This document shows positions 3,572 through 61,431 of a stretch of 62,057 nucleotides of DNA, piece after piece. This DNA is from Candidatus Aminicenantales bacterium (lineage in GTDB: Bacteria > Acidobacteriota > Aminicenantia > Aminicenantales > Saccharicenantaceae), in the NCBI GenBank assembly GCA_049512315.1, contig JBEKXF010000018.1, positions 1-62,057 of the forward strand, in the 5' to 3' direction. Made by a program: the position numbers and the translations under genes. The notes beneath the pieces are model-generated. The model made no database searches. It saw only the letters and a program-made list of their open reading frames with translations, and was not told the origin of the DNA. Every line of letters starts with the position of its first letter. Position 1 is the first letter of the stretch.

Positions 3572-4687
3572 ATGTCCAAGTATAAGATCGCCATCCTCCC
3601 CGGTGACGGGGTCGGCAAGGACGTCGTCGAAGCCACGATGATCGTCCTCAACAAGATCGGTCTCGACGCCCAATACATCCCCGGCGACATCGGCTGGGAA
3701 TTCTGGCGCCGGGAAGGCAACCCCCTGCCCGACCGGACGGTCAGGCTGCTCAAGGAGACCGATGCCTGCCTGTTCGGGGCCATCACCTCCAAGCCCAAGG
3801 AGGACGCGAGCCTGGAGCTCGCTCCCGCGCTCAGGGCCAAGGGATTGTCCTACTTCAGCCCGATCGTCCGCCTCCGCCAGGAATTCGACCTCTACCAGAA
3901 CCTCAGGCCCTGCAAGGCCTACGCCGGGAATCCTCTCAATTATAAGGAAGGGATCGACCTGGTCATCTTCCGCGAGAACACCGAGGGGATGTATGCCGGG
4001 GTCGAGTTCTTCCCCCTGCCCCAGGTCGTCCGCGACGCCCTCCTCACGAACCCCAAAATGAAGCGCTTCAAGGACGTCCCGGCCAACGAAATCGCCGTCT
4101 CCACCCGGATCATGACCAAAGCCGCCTGCGCCAGGATCACCAAGGCGGCCTTCGAGTTCGCCCGGAAATACAAGAGGAAATCCGTGACCCTCATCGAGAA
4201 GCCGAACGTCCTCCGCGAGACGGGCGGCCTGATGCTCGACGCCGCCCGCGAGGTCGCCAAGGCCTACCCGGACATCAAGTTCTGGGACGTCAACGTGGAC
4301 GCCATCTGCATGTGGCTCCTCAAAAACCCCCACGATTACGACGTCCTCGTCGCCGAAAATCTGTTCGGCGACATCGTCTCGGACCTGGCCGCCCAGCTCG
4401 TCGGCGGGCTGGGGTTCGCCTGCAGCGGCAACATCGGCGACACGTACGGGGTCTTCGAGCCCACCCACGGCTCGGCCCCGAAATACTCCGGGATGTACAA
4501 AGTCAACCCCATCGCCACGATCCTGGCGGCCAAGATGATGCTCGACTGGATCGGCGAGACGGCCAAGGCTGCCTTGATCGAGGACGCCGTGGCCGCCGTC
4601 ATCAAGGAAGGCCAGGTCCGGACCTACGACATGGGAGGGTCCTCGACGAGCCTGGACGTCGGCCGGGCCGTGGCCGGCAAGCTCTAG
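3572..4687 (+). CDS. Isocitrate/isopropylmalate/homoisocitrate dehydrogenase family protein
   Basis: GDGVG, RENTEG, NLFGDIVSD, FEPTHGSAP motifs. Confidence 0.92.
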   Translation: MSKYKIAILPGDGVGKDVVEATMIVLNKIGLDAQYIPGDIGWEFWRREGNPLPDRTVRLLKETDACLFGAITSKPKEDASLELAPALRAKGLSYFSPIVRLRQEFDLYQNLRPCKAYAGNPLNYKEGIDLVIFRENTEGMYAGVEFFPLPQVVRDALLTNPKMKRFKDVPANEIAVSTRIMTKAACARITKAAFEFARKYKRKSVTLIEKPNVLRETGGLMLDAAREVAKAYPDIKFWDVNVDAICMWLLKNPHDYDVLVAENLFGDIVSDLAAQLVGGLGFACSGNIGDTYGVFEPTHGSAPKYSGMYKVNPIATILAAKMMLDWIGETAKAALIEDAVAAVIKEGQVRTYDMGGSSTSLDVGRAVAGKL

Positions 4688-5378: not shown

Positions 5379-5845
5379 AAGCGAGCGACGGCCGCTTTTT
5401 CATCCGGCGGATGAAGGAGGAAGACCTGCCCGTGGTCCGGACTATCGAGGCCCTGTCTTTCTCGAACCCCTGGAGCGACAACACCTTCCGGGGCGAGATT
5501 CAGAACACATCCATTTCTTTTCCGCTGGTCGTCGTCCGCAAGCCCGGCGACGAGGTCGTCGGCTACATCATCTTCTGGCACATCCGGGAGGACGTCCAGG
5601 TCAACAACGTCGCCGTCCACCCGGATTTCCGCGGGCAGGGGATCGGCGAGGCCCTGATGCGCCACGTCATCGACAAGGTCCGGAAGAACGGCGCCACCTT
5701 CATGACCCTCGAGGTCCGGCCCTCGAACGCTGCGGCCGTGACGCTCTACAAAAAGCTGGGGTTCGAGATCCTGGGGACGCGGAAGAATTACTACACCAAC
5801 CCGGACGAGGACGCCTACCTGATGGGACTCGTCCTGGATCAATAA
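5375..5845 (+). CDS. rimI: Ribosomal protein S18 alanine N-acetyltransferase
   Basis: GTGA overlap with tsaB; GNAT motif VAVHPDFRGQGIG, LEVRPSN, RKNYY..EDA. Confidence 0.9.
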   Translation: MKASDGRFFIRRMKEEDLPVVRTIEALSFSNPWSDNTFRGEIQNTSISFPLVVVRKPGDEVVGYIIFWHIREDVQVNNVAVHPDFRGQGIGEALMRHVIDKVRKNGATFMTLEVRPSNAAAVTLYKKLGFEILGTRKNYYTNPDEDAYLMGLVLDQ

Positions 5846-30327: not shown

Positions 30328-30445
30328 TCGACCGCGTTTCCAAGGTTGAGCTCGGGGGGTTCCCTCGCTAAGGAACGAAATGTGACAGATGTCCTGATTA
30401 AAAGACAATGTCGGAGGCCGGTTTCTTGGGCGGCTCCGTCAATAG

Positions 30446-30462
30446 TTGGCACGAATAGTGCT
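30446..30462 (+). promoter_or_regulatory. sigma54 (-24/-12) promoter
   Basis: TTGGCACGAATAGTGCT, GG-N10-GC. Confidence 0.75.
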
Positions 30463-30504
30463 ATAATTAATTGTGGAACTCAGGGTGGATGGAAGGAGGG
30501 GGTC

Positions 30505-40783: not shown

Positions 40784-45692
<4,909 letters not shown>

Positions 45693-45708
45693 GCCGGTTA
45701 TTAGGAAA

Positions 45709-45727
45709 TGTGCTTTTTTATAGCACA
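45709..45727. promoter_or_regulatory. Putative enhancer (UAS) for a sigma54 activator
   Basis: Perfect palindrome TGTGCT-N7-AGCACA about 130 bp upstream of a -24/-12 promoter; variants at 48111 and 49869. Confidence 0.65.
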
Positions 45728-45852
45728 ACTTCTTGGCCGGGAAAACAACTGATTTCGTCCGGCCGGAGGCTTTGAATTGCCGGTCACCTGAAATTCCGCC
45801 TTTTTCCAGAGAGGAAATCAATTTCAAGACATTCTGAGAACGCGGAAAGATT

Positions 45853-45869
45853 CTGGCATGAAAACTGCA
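45853..45869 (+). promoter_or_regulatory. sigma54 promoter
   Basis: CTGGCATGAAAACTGCA, GG-N10-GC. Confidence 0.75.
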
Positions 45870-45964
45870 CTTATAGTATAAGTAGTTTCTCCCGAGTCCA
45901 TCGTGCCGTCCAATAGCGGCCGGGCGCGGGATGGCGAGATGGAAAAGAAAAAAAGGAGGTTTCT

Positions 45965-46111
45965 ATGCTTTGGACAATCCTGATCGTCCTGTTTATTTTA
46001 TGGGCCCTGGGATTTTTCGCGTTCCACGCCGGCGGCCTGATCCATATTCTTCTGGTCATCGCCGTGATCGTTCTGATCGTCCGACTGGTACAGGGACGGA
46101 GAGTTCTTTAG
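45965..46111 (+). CDS. lmo0937-family (DUF5670-like) 48-aa membrane protein, copy 1
   Basis: SD AAGGAGG; MLWTILIVLFILWALGFFAFHAGGLIHILLVIAVIVLIVRLVQGRRVL; below the ORF-track cutoff. Confidence 0.88.
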   Translation: MLWTILIVLFILWALGFFAFHAGGLIHILLVIAVIVLIVRLVQGRRVL

Positions 46112-46296
46112 AGGAAGATCTGACGGGGAGTCATTCTCCCGACTGATCTGAAAAGGGCGTCCTCTCGCGGGGGAAGACGCCCATTCTTACTCTGCTGGGG
46201 GCATTTTCCGAATTCAGCCGTGGTGAAAATCGATGTGACGGGCAATGGAAAATCCAAGGAGATCCCCCGATTTTAGGTTTGAGGAGGTCTAATTCC

Positions 46297-46509
46297 ATGA
46301 AGCTTGCGGGTATTGTTCTCATCGTTCTAGGAGCCCTGGCTCTGGCCTATCAGGGTATACGCTATACAACTCGGGAGAAGCTGATTGATATCGGCCCCCT
46401 CAAGGTCACGGCTACGGAGAAGAAGACCATCCCGCTGCCTCCGATCGTGGGCGGAGTGGCGATCGTCGCGGGTATCGCGCTGATCCTTGTGGAGCGCAGA
46501 AAGAAATAA
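46297..46509 (+). CDS. DUF3185-like small membrane protein
   Basis: SD GAGGAGG; TM helix - YTTREKLIDIGPLKVT..KTIPLPP - TM helix. Confidence 0.82.
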   Translation: MKLAGIVLIVLGALALAYQGIRYTTREKLIDIGPLKVTATEKKTIPLPPIVGGVAIVAGIALILVERRKK

Positions 46510-46579
46510 CGGAGTTTTCGCGGAGTCCGTTCCCGGCTGTCCACGACCCAGTTCCTTATCCTGACGCCCCTGCCCGGGC

Positions 46580-46608
46580 TTGACAAATCTTATTTCCTCT
46601 CTTAGAAT
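46580..46608 (+). promoter_or_regulatory. sigma70 promoter of the response regulator
   Basis: TTGACA-17bp-TAGAAT. Confidence 0.75.
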
Positions 46609-46638
46609 CTCCCTTAAACTAGAACCAGTGGAAATCCG

Positions 46639-48057
46639 ATGGCTTCTGTTCTGATCATCGATGATGATAAGCTCATTTGCGACTGGATCGCGAATGTCGT
46701 CACCCGATTAGGGCATCACGCCGTCTCGACGCACCTTCTCCGGGAGGGGCTCAGGAAAGTCCAATCCGAGTCATTCGACATCGTTTTTCTGGACGTCCAG
46801 ATGCCCGATGGAAGCGGCTTGGAGAGCATGCCGAAGATCAAAGCCGTCCGATCTTCCCCGGAAATCATCGTGATCACCGGGCGGGGCGATCCCGACGAGG
46901 CCGAACTCGCCATCCAAACCGGCGCCTGGGATTATCTGGAAAAGCCGGCTTCGTTCGAAGCCATCAAACTTCCCCTTCTCCGGGCTCTGGAATATCGAGC
47001 GGAAAGAAAACCGGGGAAGTCGTCGACCGTTTTGAAAAGAAACGGCATTATCGGAGATTCACAAAAGATCACTTCTTGTCTGGAACTTCTGGCCCAGGCG
47101 GCAAGCAGCGATGCCAATGTTCTCATCAACGGCGAAACCGGCACGGGAAAAGAGCTTTTTGCAAAGGTGGTCCATTATAACAGCCCTAGGGCCAAAAGAA
47201 ATTTCGTGGTCGTTGACTGCACGGCGCTTCCTGAGACACTCGTTGAAAGCGTTCTTTTCGGGCACGCGCGGGGAGCTTTTACCGGGGCTGAAACGAGTGA
47301 GGAGGGGTTGATCAAGCAGGCCGACGGAGGAACTCTTTTTTTAGATGAGATCGGGGAGTTGCCGTCATTGATCCAAAAAAAATTCCTCCGGGTCATTCAA
47401 GAGCACCGCTTCCGTCCTGTCGGAGGGCGTCGAGAAATCGAAAGCGATTTCAGGCTTGTGGCGGCGACAAACAGAAATCTGGAAACCATGGTCCGGGAGG
47501 GACGATTCCGGGAAGATCTCCTCTTTCGGCTTCGGACGATCGTGATTGACTCACCCCCGCTGAGAGAAATTCCCGAAGACATCAAAAAATTGACGGTCTT
47601 TTATATGGACGATTTGTGCGAGCGGTTTGGAATAGTCGCCAAACGGGCTTCTCCCGAATTCTGGGATGTCGTGGCCGAATATCAATGGCCCGGCAATGTG
47701 CGAGAACTGATCCAGGCTTTGGAGAAAGCGTTGCTTTCGGCAAAAGAAGAACCCATGCTGTTCCCCAAACACCTTCCGACGTATATTCGTATTCAGGTGG
47801 CCCGGAACTCTTTCCCGCAGAAGCCGACAAGCCAGGGCAAGCCAGAGATCCGCTCGAGCGCTCCCAAAGTGCCACCCAAATTGAAAGAGATGCGGACAGC
47901 AGCAGTTTCTGAAGCCGAGCGACAGTATCTGAAGGGCCTGATCTCTTTTGCGGGTGGAGATAACAACAAAGCATGCCGGATTTCCGGCCTGTCTCGCTCA
48001 AGATTCTATACTCTTCTCAGAAAGTACCGACCAACTGATGGGCGTTGGCCGGAATGA
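46639..48057 (+). CDS. NtrC-family sigma54-dependent response regulator (REC-AAA+-HTH)
   Basis: IIDDD, FLDVQMPD, GETGTGKE, GAFTGA, LFLDEIG, WPGNVREL, C-terminal HTH. Confidence 0.95.
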   Translation: MASVLIIDDDKLICDWIANVVTRLGHHAVSTHLLREGLRKVQSESFDIVFLDVQMPDGSGLESMPKIKAVRSSPEIIVITGRGDPDEAELAIQTGAWDYLEKPASFEAIKLPLLRALEYRAERKPGKSSTVLKRNGIIGDSQKITSCLELLAQAASSDANVLINGETGTGKELFAKVVHYNSPRAKRNFVVVDCTALPETLVESVLFGHARGAFTGAETSEEGLIKQADGGTLFLDEIGELPSLIQKKFLRVIQEHRFRPVGGRREIESDFRLVAATNRNLETMVREGRFREDLLFRLRTIVIDSPPLREIPEDIKKLTVFYMDDLCERFGIVAKRASPEFWDVVAEYQWPGNVRELIQALEKALLSAKEEPMLFPKHLPTYIRIQVARNSFPQKPTSQGKPEIRSSAPKVPPKLKEMRTAAVSEAERQYLKGLISFAGGDNNKACRISGLSRSRFYTLLRKYRPTDGRWPE

Positions 48058-48090
48058 TGCCGGTCATGGCCCTTAAAAAAACAGAGAATT

Positions 48091-48129
48091 AGTGCTTATT
48101 TATTGGAATGGGTGCTATTTAATAGAACA
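48091..48129. promoter_or_regulatory. Putative tandem UAS
   Basis: GGTGCT-N7-AGAACA at 48111-48129 plus a degenerate AGTGCT-N7-TGGAAT 20 bp upstream. Confidence 0.55.
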
Positions 48130-48208
48130 AATGGCCGCCGATTCCGGGGGAAAACGGCTCGTATAATTTCCTCATCCCTATAAAAAACTAATCTTCTGGG
48201 TTATGAAT

Positions 48209-48225
48209 TTGGCATGTTTCTTGAT
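48209..48225 (+). promoter_or_regulatory. sigma54-like promoter (variant -12)
   Basis: TTGGCATGTTTCTTGAT: good -24, -12 reads TTGA instead of TTGC. Confidence 0.5.
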
Positions 48226-48287
48226 TACGATTCAATAGGCATAAAGAGAAATGGCGCAGATTCGTTTTTAAAGGAAAATTTAAACCT

Positions 48288-48659
48288 ATGCAGCTGCTCT
48301 TTTATTCAAGTGCGGATGATCAGAATAACAAGAGACTTGAGGCGGCAGTCCATAAGGTGATCCCAGAAAGCAAAATAGAGCTCTTCAAAAGACTGGATGA
48401 TTTCAAAGAGAGACTCCGGATGCCAGTAGAACCGGATTCTATCGCAGTTCTCTCGGCTTCGGACCGGGAAGAGCTTCAGCAGATGCAGCTGCTCCGCGGG
48501 ATGCTCACGGAGATTTATGTCGTCCTCGTTATCCCGGATCGAAAGAAGGGCACCATCGAGCTCGCCCACCTCTTGTTGCCGCGATTCTTAAGCCAAAAAA
48601 ATGATAGTTTCGTAGATCTCAGCAAAGTCGTCAACAAAATGTATCGGAATTCTCACTGA
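48288..48659 (+). CDS. Hypothetical protein, receiver-like (beta/alpha)5 pattern without the canonical phospho-Asp
   Basis: SD AAGGA; alternating hydrophobic strands LLFYS/IELF/IAVLS/VVLVI/RFLS. Confidence 0.7.
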   Translation: MQLLFYSSADDQNNKRLEAAVHKVIPESKIELFKRLDDFKERLRMPVEPDSIAVLSASDREELQQMQLLRGMLTEIYVVLVIPDRKKGTIELAHLLLPRFLSQKNDSFVDLSKVVNKMYRNSH

Positions 48660-48801
48660 TCCTGTGAGATGATGGCCGGCCTTCTTCGCGGCGGGGACGG
48701 CGGATTCGGCCCCGGAAGCAGCGACGAATATGAAATTTCCCTCATAACGATCAACTTCCCGTCCCTCTCGATATCGCCGGTCATAAAAAATACTCCGGAG
48801 A

Positions 48802-49353
48802 TCAATTCTGTTTAGCTTTTTTCTCGATGTAAAGTCTCAGTTCGGTGAAAAAACTGCAATTATGATTTATTTGCATCTCGCCAACTTCTCTTTTTAAAAA
48901 ATTGACATTGAATGCAGATAAAACCTCGTCCTTATTTCCTCGGTTCCAGCCCAGCGCAAAGTCAAATCCGTGGAGATCAAATCCGTTCATAGAACCCAGG
49001 TGATGCACATTTTTGAATTTGAGCCAATGATTCTCAAAACCCAACTCGCCGAATTTTCTGATATCTTGAAGAGCATCTGTCTGTCTCTCTTTTTGATTTC
49101 TCTTGCCTGCCATTGAGCTCAGTATCTTTTCGGGAAGAGTCATTTTTAGCTCTCTCTCTATGATCGGTTTTGCGTTTTCAACCATGAGGAGGATTGCCAT
49201 TTCTTGTGCTTTTTTGTTTCTTCCCATATACCATAAGGCTATTTCATATCTCTTCCAAAAAATTAGCGAGCCGATGACAACACCGCCCACCATCAGGGCA
49301 ACGACGACTTTTCTCCAAACTCTTTTCCTGACTCTTGATCCGGTTTTGGTCAT
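48802..49353 (-). CDS. AT-rich orphan membrane-anchored hypothetical protein
   Basis: 183-aa ORF in AT-rich DNA, basic N-terminus followed by one TM helix. Confidence 0.65.
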   Translation of the reverse strand: MTKTGSRVRKRVWRKVVVALMVGGVVIGSLIFWKRYEIALWYMGRNKKAQEMAILLMVENAKPIIERELKMTLPEKILSSMAGKRNQKERQTDALQDIRKFGELGFENHWLKFKNVHHLGSMNGFDLHGFDFALGWNRGNKDEVLSAFNVNFLKREVGEMQINHNCSFFTELRLYIEKKAKQN

Positions 49354-49518
49354 TATGGCTTCTCGCTCTTATGTAGGAGGACGCCCTCTTCAAATCAAGT
49401 CGAGTGATGGACTTCCCGCCAGATCTCCCTCACGAAAATAGCCGCCGGACAGGCTCAAGCAAAGGTGGCGATGACGTCGATAACCGCAAAACGGCGTCTC
49501 TTTTTGGCGTTTTCTCCG

Positions 49519-49665
49519 CTAAAGAACTCTCCGGCCCTGCAGCAGTCGGACGATCAGAACGATCACGGCGATAACCAGGAGAATGTGGATCAAGCCGCCG
49601 GCGTGGAACGCGAAAAGCCCCAGAGCCCATAAAATAAACAGGACGATCAAGATTGTCCAAAGCAT
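49519..49665 (-). CDS. lmo0937-family 48-aa membrane protein, copy 2
   Basis: SD GAGGAGG; MLWTILIVLFILWALGLFAFHAGGLIHILLVIAVIVLIVRLLQGRRVL; 46/48 aa identical to copy 1. Confidence 0.88.
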   Translation of the reverse strand: MLWTILIVLFILWALGLFAFHAGGLIHILLVIAVIVLIVRLLQGRRVL

Positions 49666-49757
49666 GGAAACCTCCTCTTTTTCTTTTGCCTCTCGCCGTC
49701 CAGCGCCCTTTCGTTATCGGATGGCGCCATGGAATCGGAAAAGGCCACCAGTTTTAC

Positions 49758-49774
49758 TGCTATTTTCATGCCAA
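49758..49774 (-). promoter_or_regulatory. sigma54 promoter
   Basis: TTGGCATGAAAATAGCA on the minus strand, GG-N10-GC. Confidence 0.72.
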
Positions 49775-49868
49775 ATTCTTTCCGTATTTTCAGCAGGTTG
49801 AAGATCACCCTTCTTTAGGTCAAGGGCGGCCCGGCCATACGAATTGGGCTGGCTTCCTTCTCAGTAAT

Positions 49869-49906
49869 TGTCCTATTCAACAGCACATTTCCTATAAAAA
49901 CGCATA
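49869..49906. promoter_or_regulatory. Putative tandem UAS shared by divergent sigma54 promoters
   Basis: TGTCCT-N7-AGCACA (49869-49887) followed by TTTCCT-N7-CGCATA. Confidence 0.62.
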
Positions 49907-50031
49907 TTACCTGCCAAGCTGTCCCGAAAGGATTGTTAGGGGGGCCATCCTTTTCACCCCATTTGTCGTGGTATCAGGGCGTTGAAAGCGAGTCGCATAC
50001 ATGAAAGGGGAGAGGCAATAACGGAAATGAA

Positions 50032-50048
50032 TTGGCACACAATTCGCA
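50032..50048 (+). promoter_or_regulatory. sigma54 promoter
   Basis: TTGGCACACAATTCGCA, GG-N10-GC. Confidence 0.72.
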
Positions 50049-50076
50049 TAAGCTATTTAATGAAAGGAGAACGAAT

Positions 50077-51276
50077 ATGAAAAAAATCCTCTGGATCATT
50101 CCCGTGATTCTTTTGATCACGGCGGGCTACGCTGGGTATTTTTCTTCGCCTGGACTCGGCCATCCCGCTAGGGGGGGAAGTTCCATTGCCCCCAGTGCTC
50201 AAGAAGACACTTCCTTCTTTTATGATCGTTTGTCCCCCTATGGAAACTGGACCAACTTCAGCCCCTACGGCTACGTTTGGACCCCCAGGCAAATGGGCTA
50301 CCGCTGGCGGCCTTATAGCGATGGACATTGGGTCTGGACCGATGACGGCTGGACCTGGATCGCGAACGAGGAATGGGGAGATATTCCCTTCCATTATGGC
50401 CGCTGGGGCTGGGATAACGACATGGGCTGGTTTTGGGTTCCCGGCACGGACTGGGGCCCCGCCTGGGTGACCTGGAGGTCGAACGACCAATACATGGGCT
50501 GGGCGCCTCTTCCGCCTGGCGTCGAGTTCAGCGCCGGAATGAATTTCAATTCGCTTTCGATCAATATTCCCCTCAATTTCTGGGTCTTCATCCAAGGCCC
50601 GCATTTTCAGGACCAGAATCTCAATCCCTATGTCCTTCCGTTTGAGCGCAACCAGACGATCGTCAACTATACGTCGATGCACAACAACATCTACACCCGC
50701 AACAACAGGATCGTCAACGAAGGAATCGGGGTTGATGAGGTCCGTCGAATCACCGGGCGGGCCGTCCCCACCTACGGGCTGCAGGATGCCCGGCAGCCGG
50801 GACGTACGAAGGTCGTGGGCCAGGAGGTCCAGATGTTCCGGCCGGCCATCCGGCAAAATGAAGCCGCAAAACCAAAGGTCGTTTTGAACAGGGACCAGGC
50901 CCGGCAAGAGCTGGCTCCGGCCAAGATCTTCGAGCCGCGGACAAAGCAGGCCGTCAATACGGAAGCCGCGGCCGTTCAGAAGCGGCAAGCCGACGAAAAG
51001 GCCCTCCTCGAGAAAACCCAGTCGCAAGAGCTGCAGGACATGCAGCGCAAGAGCGCCGCCGCACAAGCGCAAGTCCGCGACACGGCTGCAAAAGCGAAGA
51101 TCCAGAAGGACTATCAGACCAAAACGGCCGAATTGCAGAAACAGCATCAAGCCGAGAAGCAACAGTTGACCGAACGGCACAAACAGGATACCGCGCAGGT
51201 CAAAAAGGTCGCCCAGCCGGCCAAGCAGGAGAAGCAGGCCCCGCCGGTCAAAAAGAAAAAGATCAATCAGGAGTAG
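50077..51276 (+). CDS. Secreted DUF6600-like protein with Gln/Lys-rich coiled-coil tail
   Basis: SD AAGGAG; FYDRLSPYGNW..YGYVW..WRPYSDGHWVWTDDGWTW..PFHYGRW..WGPAWVTW..GWAPLPP. Confidence 0.85.
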   Translation: MKKILWIIPVILLITAGYAGYFSSPGLGHPARGGSSIAPSAQEDTSFFYDRLSPYGNWTNFSPYGYVWTPRQMGYRWRPYSDGHWVWTDDGWTWIANEEWGDIPFHYGRWGWDNDMGWFWVPGTDWGPAWVTWRSNDQYMGWAPLPPGVEFSAGMNFNSLSINIPLNFWVFIQGPHFQDQNLNPYVLPFERNQTIVNYTSMHNNIYTRNNRIVNEGIGVDEVRRITGRAVPTYGLQDARQPGRTKVVGQEVQMFRPAIRQNEAAKPKVVLNRDQARQELAPAKIFEPRTKQAVNTEAAAVQKRQADEKALLEKTQSQELQDMQRKSAAAQAQVRDTAAKAKIQKDYQTKTAELQKQHQAEKQQLTERHKQDTAQVKKVAQPAKQEKQAPPVKKKKINQE

Positions 51277-51306: not shown

Positions 51307-51352
51307 CTTCACGTCGGCCCCGAGAAGATACTTCTCGGGGCCGACGATGAAG
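51307..51352. repeat. Strong intergenic hairpin
   Basis: Perfect 16-bp stem CGTCGGCCCCGAGAAG-ATA-CTTCTCGGGGCCGACG; no U-tract. Confidence 0.7.
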
Positions 51353-51412: not shown

Positions 51413-53008
51413 GTGACGGAACAAAAAAGGCAACGTTTTTGCGGGCTAAAATGGAAATTCGCGCTGATGGCCTTGGTCTGTTTCGCGGCCTTCATCAGCG
51501 GCGGATCACACGCGTACGGAAGCCTATTATCCGAGAGCAACGATCCTCCGCGACCGGGATCGCCTCAACCCCCGCAAGCCTATGCTGCGAATTTTTGTTT
51601 ATCTTCTTTTCGAACAAACACCGACAGCGTGAATGGAGGCGGCTCCGGGCCCATAATATTTTCCCTCCAACAACAGCCGTTTAGCGAGGCGCCCGTTCGG
51701 TTGCGGAATGACGACCCGGAGTATAACAAGAGATATCCTGTGTGGGCGGTTGCTCTCCAGGTTGTCACAACGAATGCTTTTATATGGGTGGTTGATCGGT
51801 TTGTTTTTAGTTATCCTTGGTCGCACATAGGACCTACGAGCTGGAAAAATAACATAAAAACGGGCTGGGTATGGGATACGGACAGGCTGGGTATGAATTT
51901 TTTCTTTCATCCCTATTCCGGGAGCGCTTTTTTTAATGCCGCTCGGGCGAACGGATATAGTTACTTCGAATCCGTGCCTTTTACCCTTTTGGGCAGTTTG
52001 ACGTGGGAGTATTTCGGGGAAACGACGCTGCCGGCGTATAACGATCTTATCAACACGACTCTCAGCGGCGCATTATTTGGAGAAATCCTTTACAGATTGA
52101 GTTCGAGTATCCTGGATGATCGGACGACCGGAGTGGAGAGATTTTTCCGGGAATTTGTGGCTTCGATTCTTAGTCCCGGGAGATCTTTCAGCAGGCTTTT
52201 GGAGGGAAAGCTGACAAGAGTCACCCCGAAAGAGGTCTATCAGAAAGAACCGCTCAATATTACGTTGTACGTTGGAACGCATTGGTTCAATGAGGGAACA
52301 AAGTTCGGGACGGGCAGCCCCCCAAACGGAATGTTCGGGATTCATCTGGATTATGGAGATCCGTTTGAGATACGACCCCGGAAGCCTTTTGATTTCTTCA
52401 AACTCCGGATAGATCTCAGTTACGGAAATACTGTGGGAAAGAAATATCTGGACAATATCACCGGCTATGGTCTTTTGTTCGGCAAGACCGTTCACTCCGG
52501 GAATTGGGATATCCTGATTGGGGCATTTCAACATTATAACTACTGGGACAGCAGGATTTTCGAACTCGCCGCTCTGGGCTTCGGCGGAGGAATCATTGCG
52601 AAGTGGCAGTTGTCCACGAGTTCCAATCTTCAATCCGCATTCCATCTCGGGGTCGTCCCTCTCGGCGCAACCAATTCGCCATATGTTGATATTGTGGAGG
52701 GCGGGATCCCTGGCCGGGATTATGATTATTCCGGCGGAGCCGAGGCCAAGTATGAGGGCACTCTGAATCTTGCGAACAGGGCACAATTGACGGCGATCTA
52801 TTACCTTTACTGGCTTCATACGTATGTCGGACCGGTTGGACACAAAATCATCTACATATTCAAACCCAGAATTGCCGTTAGACTTTTCAGCAACCTCAGC
52901 CTTGGATTCGAATATTTGTATTACCACAAGGACAACTACCTTCGGGATTTTCCCGATGTTCACAGTAGAAACAGCGAGCAGAAACTCTATCTGATGATGT
53001 ATTTTTAG
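51413..53008 (+). CDS. DUF3943-like putative outer-membrane protein
   Basis: SD AAGGAGG + GTG; WVWDTD..NFFFHPYSG..FNAARANGYS..WEYFGE..NDLINT; amphipathic beta strands ending in C-terminal Phe. Confidence 0.78.
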   Translation: MTEQKRQRFCGLKWKFALMALVCFAAFISGGSHAYGSLLSESNDPPRPGSPQPPQAYAANFCLSSFRTNTDSVNGGGSGPIIFSLQQQPFSEAPVRLRNDDPEYNKRYPVWAVALQVVTTNAFIWVVDRFVFSYPWSHIGPTSWKNNIKTGWVWDTDRLGMNFFFHPYSGSAFFNAARANGYSYFESVPFTLLGSLTWEYFGETTLPAYNDLINTTLSGALFGEILYRLSSSILDDRTTGVERFFREFVASILSPGRSFSRLLEGKLTRVTPKEVYQKEPLNITLYVGTHWFNEGTKFGTGSPPNGMFGIHLDYGDPFEIRPRKPFDFFKLRIDLSYGNTVGKKYLDNITGYGLLFGKTVHSGNWDILIGAFQHYNYWDSRIFELAALGFGGGIIAKWQLSTSSNLQSAFHLGVVPLGATNSPYVDIVEGGIPGRDYDYSGGAEAKYEGTLNLANRAQLTAIYYLYWLHTYVGPVGHKIIYIFKPRIAVRLFSNLSLGFEYLYYHKDNYLRDFPDVHSRNSEQKLYLMMYF

Positions 53009-53068: not shown

Positions 53069-53374
53069 ATGAATAGTTTATTCGTGCAAGAAACAACGAA
53101 TGCAAAACCTCTGAATGTGATCCTTCACAAGATCCTCACATTTATTTATTTTCTGGCCCATCAGATCGGTTTAGGGATCATCAAGGTCATTCAGCCGCTA
53201 TTTCCACGTAATATTTTCCCAGACAGTATTGTCGATCCCCTTGGATTCTTGATCATCTTGACCTTATTTATGTTTCTTGTTGGTGTCGCCAAGAAAATCG
53301 CCTGGGTCATTGTTTGCATAGGCTGGATTCTGTTATTCATTAGAATTCTTATGATCATTTTTAAGCTCGGCTAG
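53069..53374 (+). CDS. Small hydrophobic membrane protein
   Basis: 101-aa ORF with 2-3 TM segments; SD-like GGAGG upstream. Confidence 0.6.
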   Translation: MNSLFVQETTNAKPLNVILHKILTFIYFLAHQIGLGIIKVIQPLFPRNIFPDSIVDPLGFLIILTLFMFLVGVAKKIAWVIVCIGWILLFIRILMIIFKLG

Positions 53375-60375: not shown

Positions 60376-60408
60376 TATCCCTCTGTTCTCTTCCGGCCTC
60401 ACGGCGAA

Positions 60409-60480
60409 TGGGCCTACCAGGATTCGAACCTGGGACCTGCCGGTTATGAGCCGGTGGCTCTACCACTGAGCTATAGGCCC
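60409..60480 (-). tRNA. tRNA with CAT anticodon, most likely tRNA-Ile2 (lysidine); CCA not encoded
   Basis: GGGCCTATAGCTCAGTGGTAGAGC..CCGG-CTCATAA-CCGG..GGTTCGAATCC..TAGGCCCA; paired G1, C4/C5 acceptor pattern typical of Ile2. Confidence 0.92.
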
Positions 60481-60489
60481 AGGCCCCCC

Positions 60490-60518
60490 TTTATAACAAA
60501 ATATGGTGCCCTCGTCAA
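60490..60518 (-). promoter_or_regulatory. sigma70 promoter of the tRNA
   Basis: TTGACG-17bp-TATAAA with TG extension. Confidence 0.75.
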
Positions 60519-61431
60519 TTACGGTAATTACGGTGGTAATTACGGTGACACACAACTAATTACCGAAATCATCGGGCAATGAGCAATCCGTTTCCTAGCG
60601 AGCGTCATATTCCCTATGAATAGAGAATGATCGCGTGTAGGAAGTACCAAAACATCCGTTCATAAGAGCGATCAAGCCAATGTCCCGCATTGCGAGGGTG
60701 GTCATTCCGGATTTTCCCCACCATATCGTCCAGCGAGGGAACCGCCGGCAAAAGGTATTTTTCAGCGATCAAGACCGCCAATTCTATATGCGTCTACTCA
60801 AGAAATATGGCGATGAGGCCGGAGTCACCTATTGGGCCTATTGCCTGATGGACAACCACGTCCACCTCGTCGCTGTGCCGAAGTCCCCGGAGAGCTTCAC
60901 CAAAGGACTGGGCGCAGCTCATTGGAAGTACACATTGACCATAAATATCCGCGAGGAGTGGAAAGGTTATCTATGGCAAGGGAGGTTTTTCTCTTGTCCG
61001 CTCGACGGCCGATATCTTGTAGCCGCGATGAGGTACGTCGAATGCAATCCCGTTAGAGCAGGTCTCGTTGCGCGAGCAGAAGATTATCCTTGGTCGAGTG
61101 CACATTCACACGTTTTCAAGCGGAATGACCCTCTGATCAAGAGCTGCGTAATGCGGGACGAGATCAAGGACTGGTCTGGCTTTTTATCCACTGCAGCTCC
61201 GGAGTGTGAAACGAGCAATCTGAGAAAAAGCACAATGACAGGTCGGCCTGCAGGCGATCAGGATTTTGTCGAAAGACTCGAAAAGATCACGGGAAGAATC
61301 CTGAAGATAATGAAAAGAGGCCCTAAACCTCGGCATATTTGTGCAGGACGGGCGCTTCCTCCTGAGATCTAGATGAACCGCATCTTTTAGATGAATACGG
61401 ATTTCGGTAATTAGTTGTGTGTCACCGAATT
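60517..61431. mobile_element. RAYT-type HUH transposase locus bounded by 28-bp inverted repeats
   Basis: CGGTGACACACAACTAATTACCGAAATC at 60543-60570 and its exact reverse complement at 61400-61427; visibly lower GC than the host. Confidence 0.8.
60680..61372 (+). CDS. REP-associated tyrosine transposase (Y1/IS200-superfamily HUH)
   Basis: HHIVQRGN, YCLMDNHVHL (HUH), LWQGRF, RYVECNPVRAG (catalytic Tyr), YPWSS. Confidence 0.92.
   Translation: MSRIARVVIPDFPHHIVQRGNRRQKVFFSDQDRQFYMRLLKKYGDEAGVTYWAYCLMDNHVHLVAVPKSPESFTKGLGAAHWKYTLTINIREEWKGYLWQGRFFSCPLDGRYLVAAMRYVECNPVRAGLVARAEDYPWSSAHSHVFKRNDPLIKSCVMRDEIKDWSGFLSTAAPECETSNLRKSTMTGRPAGDQDFVERLEKITGRILKIMKRGPKPRHICAGRALPPEI

Follow-up and report, generated by a model that had tools for sequence, protein, structure and literature searches.

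Introduction

The best-known general stress responses of bacteria are run by dedicated sigma70-family factors (sigmaS, sigmaB, EcfG). Here we describe a locus that has markers in common with the sigmaB regulons of Listeria and Bacillus and the sigmaS regulons of enterobacteria (lmo0937, CsbD/YjbJ, YmgE-type and BON/OsmY-like proteins); whereas those regulons rely on a sigma70-family factor, the promoters here, judged by sequence, are of the sigma54 type with an enhancer. The locus forms part of a 62,057-nucleotide stretch of Candidatus Aminicenantales DNA (assembly GCA_049512315.1, contig JBEKXF010000018.1, positions 1 to 62,057), the whole of which we refer to as the window. It encodes an enhancer-binding protein, hereafter the activator, together with a pseudo-receiver and several small membrane and secreted proteins. 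In the reading that we favour and consider probable, the activator binds tandem 19-bp sites and thereby switches on genes for small membrane proteins, secreted proteins and proteins of the stress type from sigma54 promoters, both within this block and on two further contigs; together these genes would constitute a general-stress-like regulon. The genome, G000 (3.55 Mb, 96.6% complete), holds the window as its contig C18; other genomes of the order carry G numbers and individual loci carry L numbers.

The machinery is a textbook sigma54 enhancer system whose parts are themselves known. NtrC-class enhancer-binding proteins combine a receiver (REC), an AAA+ domain with the GAFTGA motif and a helix-turn-helix (HTH) with tandem sites located about 100 bp or more from a GG-N10-GC promoter (PMC4641369), and the activator shares this design, although it scores below the cut-off of all 25 named NCBIfam families listed, NtrC included (TIGR01818, 331 against 559 bits). 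The same method has served to reconstruct sigma54 regulons of Desulfovibrio (PMC4641369, PMC3333781). The wider family of the activator includes a Desulfovibrionaceae protein (48% identity) encoded in the order kinase, activator, pyruvate oxidoreductase (por), lactate permease, which is the reported lurSR gene order of Desulfovibrio vulgaris (PMC6456213). By this synteny and by its 48% identity to the LurR-type locus, the activator falls in the family of LurSR (DVU3022-DVU3023), DVU3023 itself lying outside the alignment. LurR sites, as given in Additional file 4 of PMC4641369, are 18 bp long (TGTC-N10-GACA) and occur in several copies; they are one base shorter than the 19-bp sites described here, and both are TGTC...GACA-type palindromes upstream of a similar sigma54 promoter. 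LurR has its kinase LurS next to it and controls lactate oxidation, whereas the locus in the window holds stress-type cargo and no kinase, por or lactate permease. The activator is thus placed, from its sequence and neighbourhood, in the same wider family as LurR and is not a LurR orthologue by neighbours or site length.

Two kinds of described system bear on the regulation of such a protein. For Rrp2 of Borrelia (PMC2940757) and BumR of Campylobacter (PMC12469816) the receiver aspartate is reported to be needed, cognate kinase activity to be missing, and acetyl phosphate is the proposed donor. Rrp2 is, like the activator in the window, a sigma54 activator; the present case differs in that the locus has no kinase gene, nor was a phosphatase partner seen there. 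The acetyl-phosphate model for Rrp2 has reportedly been disputed since. DVU3305, from a three-component system of D. vulgaris, is a sigma54 activator labelled general-stress (PMC3333781); it works with a kinase of its own and a Lon-receiver partner, its targets are neighbouring genes, and CsbD, BON and lmo0937 were not found in the accessible part of its description. The accessible part of a cross-phylum survey mentions neither Acidobacteriota nor CsbD (PMC12316311), and the motif strings reported below were not found among the other regulators' sites in the portion of the PMC4641369 file at hand. A literature search weighted to open-access work returned no account of the regulator, its motif or its cargo, although a closer motif could lie in the Desulfovibrio site tables.

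What is new is the combination of sigmaB/sigmaS-type cargo with sigma54, a clade of activators without kinases, a reused promoter cassette and an unnamed family of pseudo-receivers. If the favoured reading is true, a general stress response built on sigma54 plus an enhancer would be a further solution, found in an uncultured anaerobic lineage, and the locus would offer a testable case of regulon building, in which cassette duplication and deletion-fusion supply new targets to a two-component activator that has lost its kinase. Since the activator, its sites and its promoters can all be read, the wiring could be tested in E. coli with no need for a culture of the source organism.

The enhancer motif accompanies sigma54 promoters and the activator

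To define the motif we used 37 distinct sites from relatives' loci, each located 90-175 bp before a sigma54-like site. Their symmetric consensus is TGTSCTRTTWAAYAGSACA and the commonest form is TGTGCTGTTTWAYAGGACA; a second, weaker site lies upstream of the main one, by 19 bp in the cassette described below and by 20 bp at the pseudo-receiver promoter. An earlier interpretation of the window, which we call the sequence-only reading, had named the motif TGTGCT-N7-AGCACA. The palindromic sites that it marked are real, but the perfect palindrome proves to be one variant of a longer asymmetric consensus. A scoring matrix built from 35 of the 37 sites (two Desulfohalobiaceae sites were dropped, and none came from G000) gave 16 matches in G000 at a score of at least 12, five of them above 20. 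All five have a sigma54-like site 99-164 bp away, compared with a background of 51 of 4000 random positions, or 37 of 1500 in low-GC DNA. When the test was reversed, six of the 48 strict sigma54-like sites in G000 had an upstream motif scoring above 20, while the next scored 11.5 and the remainder 3.5 or less.

The association extends well beyond this genome. A motif together with a sigma54 site was found in 23 of 38 loci of closer activator homologues against one of 37 distant ones, and in orthologous loci the motif lies about 60 bp 3' of the activator stop codon. Metagenomes scanned with the motif alone yielded 15 matches, 13 of which have a sigma54-like site 110-176 bp away. The order-wide comparison covered 111 genomes. 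Of the 28 that carry the activator (best match in the HTH region at least 65% identical), which are spread over six families, 20 have the exact motif, as do 5 of the 83 others; the backward motif, scanned as a control, was present in 0 of the 28 and in 9 of the 83. The motif therefore occurs with predicted sigma54 sites far beyond chance. Both of its proposed ties, to sigma54 promoters and to the local activator, had been put forward in the sequence-only reading and are supported by the G000 sites, by the arrangement of the locus and by the order-wide comparison. Its description of the regulon as self-contained does not hold, as homologous promoter cassettes lie on contigs C28 and C40 and the motif in relatives is often not on the contig of the activator.

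Within the window, the same reading had placed -24/-12 sites at 45853+, 48209+ (with a variant -12), 49758- and 50032+ and palindromes at 45709, 48111 and 49869, all of which were recovered (Table 1). The palindromes, with 0, 2 and 1 mismatches, respectively, are the only matches to TGTGCT-N7-AGCACA at up to two mismatches in the whole window; three matches were also obtained in 3 of 100 shuffles, so that within the window alone the signal is modestly above chance. Weaker second sites had been noticed beside 48111 and 49869, and these were found at 48091 and 49888; a further one at 45690 had been missed. The weak tandem sites score 8.6-11.8, compared with 22-25 for the main sites. From the motif centre to the GG of the -24 element the distance is 137 (45853), 91 (48209), 106 (49758) and 156 bp (50032). 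The por promoter of LurR, ATTGGCACATTTCTTGTTA, resembles the promoter at 48209, and the variant -12 therefore looks like a trait of the family. No strong sigma70 consensus was found ahead of the target genes, whose promoters are of the sigma54 type, and rpoN, expected to be in the genome, is present at C4:59237-60661 (TIGR02395, 406 bits, above cut-off). Under the standard mechanism of enhancer-binding proteins, two dimers would sit on tandem sites about two helical turns apart and then oligomerise, opening sigma54 promoters 90-160 bp away.

In G000 an 18-bp TGTC-N10-GACA with LurR-like spacing lies upstream of a further set of sigma54 promoters (window 30380-30465; G000 C2:64919, C25:6935, C30:57087 and C37:10174). 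These stand mostly before secreted proteins, including DUF6600 paralogues, and are presumably the sites of another activator.

The activator and the possible source of its phosphorylation

The REC-AAA+(GAFTGA)-HTH architecture and the separate sigma70 promoter previously assigned to the activator were both confirmed, the latter at 46580-46608. Its C-terminus holds a helix-turn-helix-like segment, for which no Pfam HTH match was obtained at E<=0.01. The orthologues nearest in identity (72-90%) come almost all from Candidatus Aminicenantes assemblies. G000 encodes ten sigma54 activators (an eleventh match is weak), and the others are 31-39% identical to the local one. The recognition helix SRSRFYTLL is nearly invariant in the activator's clade and is found in no other G000 activator with an aligned C-terminus. 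This bears on whether the sites might be read by a different enhancer-binding protein, either one of the remaining nine of G000 or the kinase-linked paralogue of relatives, with the local activator a mere passenger. G025 does have cassettes and only the paralogue, and LurR and NrfR show that related activators may share sites; against this, orthologous loci have the site immediately 3' of the activator gene, and G000 is without the kinase-linked paralogue, while its other activators are distant and have different helices. We regard a passenger role as very unlikely.

The phylogenetic position of the activator was examined in a quick tree of 51 rows, from which four duplicate loci and matches shorter than 340 amino acids were left out. 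In this tree 34 rows, including the activator in the window, form one clade (Shimodaira-Hasegawa-like approximate likelihood ratio test, 100). No kinase matches were found in the loci of this clade, whereas a kinase is adjacent in 10 of the 11 remaining family members; the outgroup kinases are PAS-containing hybrids in the six loci scanned. The absence of a kinase from the window itself, noted previously, is upheld, as the only HATPase match on C18 is GyrB. The order kinase, activator, sigma54 promoter, pseudo-receiver is seen in a few places (two Desulfobacterota loci, G037, G150) and is read as the ancestral module. The ancestral kinase lineage occurs in 22 of the 111 genomes and in 8 of the 28 carriers, and was not found in G000.

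The receiver pocket of the activator is nevertheless intact (DD, D52, T80, K102), and D52 and K102 are present in every row of the clade that covers them. Given this retention and the conserved sigma70 promoter of its own, the activator likely still requires phosphorylation, from a donor outside the locus. It would be made constantly and switched on when a non-cognate donor, be it a different kinase or acetyl phosphate, phosphorylates D52. Elsewhere in G000 there are 11 HisKA kinases, one HisKA_3 kinase and one kinase fragment; most of the G000 kinases adjoin other regulators, and cross-talk is conceivable.

Two candidate sources were considered and rejected. The kinase on C64 is of the HisKA_3 type and lies on a contig of apparently foreign origin: this short contig (L135) encodes a REC-PAS-PAS-HisKA_3 kinase and two CRP-like genes. 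Phosphoketolase, as an obligatory source of acetyl phosphate, is present in only 7 of the 28 carriers (against 5 of the 83 others), and although it is located in several islands, the G000 copy lacks an upstream sigma54 site. That copy lies in C11:1703-14137 (93% DNA identity to the copy in the G006 island) with a P-type ATPase and a DUF6600 paralogue; C11 has a weak motif match at 4198 and no sigma54 site, and is perhaps another island fragment.

A reused enhancer-promoter-leader cassette

Six promoters of G000 carry the site, namely the four in the window and those on C28 (site at C28:35144) and C40 (site at C40:4226), and four of the six are copies of one enhancer-promoter-leader cassette of about 260 bp. 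Within the window, 45700-46115 recurs in inverted orientation at 49515-49900 (83% over 282 nt), which reduces the four window promoters to three independent types. Homology of the copies on C28 (81% over 239 nt) and C40 (85% over 242 nt) extends from the enhancer to the ribosome-binding site. The C28 cassette precedes a three-BON protein and CsbD, the only CsbD of G000, and the C40 cassette precedes a 54-amino-acid membrane protein without a Pfam match. Of 41 related genomes, 17 have the cassette, two by a weak, leader-only match. When 39 distinct leaders were aligned, 31 were found ahead of an lmo0937-family gene and eight ahead of six other families (the 54-amino-acid protein, BON, a 79-amino-acid secreted protein, the 183-amino-acid protein, a B-lectin protein and pyruvate kinase). 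Enhancer-promoter spacing in 45 cassette copies clusters at 111-115 (n=10), 142-146 (n=19) and 173-175 bp (n=5), in steps of about three helical turns; as the clusters represent a few inherited events, they lend weak support to looping.

In L032 and L039 the cassette is followed at once by the 183-amino-acid gene, which in the window comes after the lmo0937-family gene. Similarly, the radical SAM gene upstream of the activator is intact in some relatives and cut to varied lengths in others, L034 sharing the junction of the window. Together these suggest duplication of the cassette-lmo0937 unit followed by deletion as the simplest route by which the cassette spread; internal deletions would have joined it to other genes as the regulon grew. 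No sign of an active transposition mechanism was found for the cassette.

The same deletions, with the radical SAM remnant as an example, could instead be those of a decaying relic, whose kinase was lost, whose activator is silent in most carriers and whose motif is kept through recent shared descent. As such decay would predict, close orthologues in L021 and L122 are split over frames, 20 of the 28 carriers lack the kinase lineage, and carriers are patchily distributed. However, D52, K102, GAFTGA and the recognition helix are retained at 71-90% overall identity over six families, and motif and promoter are conserved though the spacer between them varies, with spacings clustered at 113, 144 and 174 bp. 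Decay seems to us very improbable.

A hairpin predicted in the leader would not occlude the ribosome-binding site. We considered and set aside a structured regulatory RNA: the hairpin is plausible (81% of cells are paired in the 39 leaders), but the leader has no Rfam match of weight and no clear covariation, the covariation measures being reached by 38, 48, 37, 5 and 32 of 500 shuffles, and it remains a weak lead. Several other arrangements were observed. Motif-less sigma54 promoters of the cassette type precede a glycine-zipper OmpA gene at L125:8916, L122:9980, L121 and others, with the motif downstream of the gene in L122 and L125. In G040 (L134:675-7662) the cassette lies ahead of pyruvate kinase, transaldolase, phosphoglucomutase and glucan phosphorylase, which may mean that carbon-storage metabolism has been recruited. 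The pseudo-receiver-type promoter is duplicated in L011:6526-7131, L121:7481-8116, L122:3998-4609 and L126:4934-5539, where one copy drives an outer-membrane beta-barrel gene. Finally, a 55-nt stretch recurs in inverted orientation downstream of both lmo0937 copies (46111-46164 and 49377-49431), at differing distances from the stop codon.

Table 1. Positions in the window of the enhancer sites, promoters and genes discussed (aa, amino acids)
Feature	Coordinates	Strand	Remarks
Weak tandem second site, left cassette	45690..45708		Matrix score 8.6; overlaps gyrA stop codon; 19 bp upstream, as is the rule for the cassette
Main enhancer site, left cassette	45709..45727		Matrix score 25.2, highest in genome
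Sigma54 -24/-12 promoter, left cassette	45853..45869	+	CTGGCATGAAAACTGCA
Conserved 5' leader with predicted hairpin	45885..45942	+	Folding z -3.1
lmo0937-family (DUF5670) 48-aa membrane protein, copy 1	45965..46111	+	NF033488, 64.8 bits (cut-off 30); PF18919 above cut-off
70-aa two-helix membrane protein	46297..46509	+	DUF3185-like, below cut-off; family in 22 of 40 loci clustered
B12-binding radical SAM remnant	46528..46578	+	17 codons; gene precedes activator in some relatives
Sigma70-type promoter of activator	46580..46608	+	TTGACA-17-TAGAAT; TTGACA-like -35 upstream of the 31 orthologues listed
REC-AAA+(GAFTGA)-HTH enhancer-binding protein, LurR family	46639..48057	+	REC, Sigma54_activat (PF00158, 222 bits) and lid
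Weak tandem second site, pseudo-receiver promoter	48091..48109		Score 8.7; conserved offset -20
Main enhancer site immediately 3' of activator	48111..48129		Score 21.9; equivalent position in orthologous loci
Sigma54 promoter of pseudo-receiver	48209..48225	+	TTGGCATGTTTCTTGAT; variant -12 (TTGA; GA replaces GC)
123-aa pseudo-receiver	48288..48659	+	Behind 48209 promoter; receiver fold, no phospho-Asp; large unnamed family
183-aa membrane-anchored protein	48802..49353	-	Probably on the 49758 transcript; family in 9 loci; directly behind cassette in L032, L039, L168
lmo0937-family membrane protein, copy 2	49519..49665	-	96% identical to copy 1; PF18919 above cut-off
Sigma54 promoter, right cassette	49758..49774	-	TTGGCATGAAAATAGCA; inverted duplicate of 45853
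Main enhancer site common to 49758- and 50032+	49869..49887		Score 24.2
Tandem second site, right cassette	49888..49906		Score 11.8
Sigma54 promoter of DUF6600 gene	50032..50048	+	TTGGCACACAATTCGCA
DUF6600 protein, signal-like N-terminus	50077..51276	+	PF20245, 119 bits
DUF3943 protein	51413..53008	+	Possibly on the 50032 transcript; directly behind same promoter type in L038, L094, L113
101-aa membrane protein	53069..53374	+	Right end of low-GC block

Target genes and the proposed role of the regulon

The predicted targets include markers of known stress regulons. Expression of lmo0937 falls in a Listeria sigB mutant (PMC7690807), in agreement with its earlier citation as a SigB-regulated gene, and for Salmonella yjbJ/CsbD and ymgE are given among the genes under sigmaS control (PMC5437024). 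Islands of relatives also hold GlsB/YmgE-type, TspO, OmpA glycine-zipper, M48, AsmA, and glycogen or pentose-phosphate genes, the YmgE-type genes being confined to relatives' islands. OsmY and TspO are likewise tied to stress regulons of the sigmaB/sigmaS type. CsbD was found in 18 of the 28 activator carriers compared with 7 of the 83 other genomes, and DUF5670 in 24 of 28 compared with 9 of 83. That CsbD and the lmo0937 family track the activator across genomes makes a general-stress role likely, judged from the cargo. The stress-type cargo proposed in the sequence-only reading thus gains support from the lmo0937 family, from the BON-CsbD pair on C28 and from this co-distribution. Its assignment of the 70-amino-acid protein to DUF3185 failed: the match to PF11381 reaches 20.3 bits against a cut-off of 25.3 and covers residues 2-22 only. 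The 183-amino-acid, DUF3943 and 101-amino-acid genes, absent from its list, also belong to the block. Between the DUF6600 and DUF3943 genes lies a perfect 16-bp inverted repeat (51312-51346) with no T run after it.

The main rival to a general-stress role is one specific to the envelope. The regulator and wiring would be the same, and the cue would be a specific envelope or metabolic signal, with the stress markers forming part of an envelope-remodelling set. The majority of targets are exported or membrane proteins, LurR, the nearest studied relative, responds to lactate, and some cassettes drive pyruvate kinase-transaldolase-phosphoglucomutase-phosphorylase or murein enzymes. On the other hand, CsbD, BON, lmo0937, GlsB/YmgE-type proteins and TspO combined are the usual signature of a sigmaB/sigmaS regulon, and the presence of CsbD and DUF5670 follows the activator. 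We consider an envelope or metabolic cue unlikely, and continue to favour the general-stress reading.

Several observations weigh against the favoured reading as a whole. With regard to cargo, a second BON gene (on C23) is not under the motif, and much of the set (DUF6600, DUF3943, OmpA, AsmA, M48, lectin) is of an envelope type that is not diagnostic of stress. G000 also has a short sigma70-family factor beside dnaJ and many factors of the size of extracytoplasmic function (ECF) sigma factors, so sigma54 need not be the sole stress route; the former, of 280 amino acids (C1:130632-131474), lies immediately behind dnaJ and an HspR-like gene. With regard to wiring, the six G000 promoters collapse to three independent types, 21 of 66 cassette-type promoters have no motif within 230 bp, and a consensus for integration host factor is absent from three of the four enhancer-promoter spacers, with one weak match in the fourth. 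The exact motif is missing in 8 of the 28 activator genomes, and five genomes have the motif and no close activator match, including the single-contig G025 (57% paralogue only). Since motif, cargo and activator travel together in one island, their co-occurrence partly reflects co-inheritance, kinship between the genomes inflates it further, and the Fisher values are overstated. As for the kinase, 7 of the 31 close loci have less than 3 kb upstream, where a neighbouring kinase could be overlooked, and the 96.6% completeness of G000 bears on its not being found there.

A bolder version of the favoured reading may be advanced tentatively, and we hold it to be doubtful as a whole: a LurR-family activator minus its sensor kinase would be the master switch of a sigma54 general stress response in Aminicenantes, with phosphorylation by a metabolite or non-cognate kinases, a pseudo-receiver dedicated to tuning, and reuse of the cassette as the means of recruiting unrelated genes (BON, CsbD, lectin, glycolytic and murein enzymes).

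The pseudo-receiver family

The product of the gene behind the 48209 promoter had previously been called a pseudo-receiver, an identity that structure prediction bears out. As the single-sequence fold was poor (predicted local distance difference test, pLDDT, 65), an alignment-based model was used instead; it has a pLDDT of 94 and the (beta-alpha)5 fold of receivers, which are also its top Foldseek matches (template-modelling scores 0.63-0.74). The phosphorylatable aspartate is missing: beta3 reads IAVLSA, and no aspartate is conserved there in 122 homologues. The protein has no Pfam family, its 121 homologues likewise have no consistent match, and PF00072 was found in no member; further profile searches and sequence searches of the PDB gave no match. 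A profile search collected 2,576 clusters at 50% identity, and the protein represents about 2,500 unnamed protein clusters without a Pfam family; its Atlas neighbours are mostly Thermodesulfobacteriota. As the ancestral first target, the pseudo-receiver may feed back on the activator pathway, which is a guess; a complex prediction with the activator's receiver scored 0.00, which speaks neither for nor against contact.

Genomic setting

The block with the regulon has a G+C content of 50%, compared with 62-64% in its flanks, and its left edge is the gyrA stop codon. The DNA 3' of gyrA was compared in four same-genus relatives, between which the cargo differs: in G002 the genes of the window are present behind gyrA in altered order, and in G001, G004 and G006 unrelated genes take this place. 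The site behind gyrA is thus a site of variable cargo. No integrase was detected among the genes scanned around the block, nor did the block give a viral or plasmid match that would point to carriage by a phage or plasmid. In G004 (L163, C72) two additional copies of the gyrA 3' end lie downstream of gyrA (3739-3839 and 5624-5687), which suggests repeated integration there. Further along the window, 60408-61372 holds a tRNA-Met followed by an IS200-like (Y1) transposase gene.

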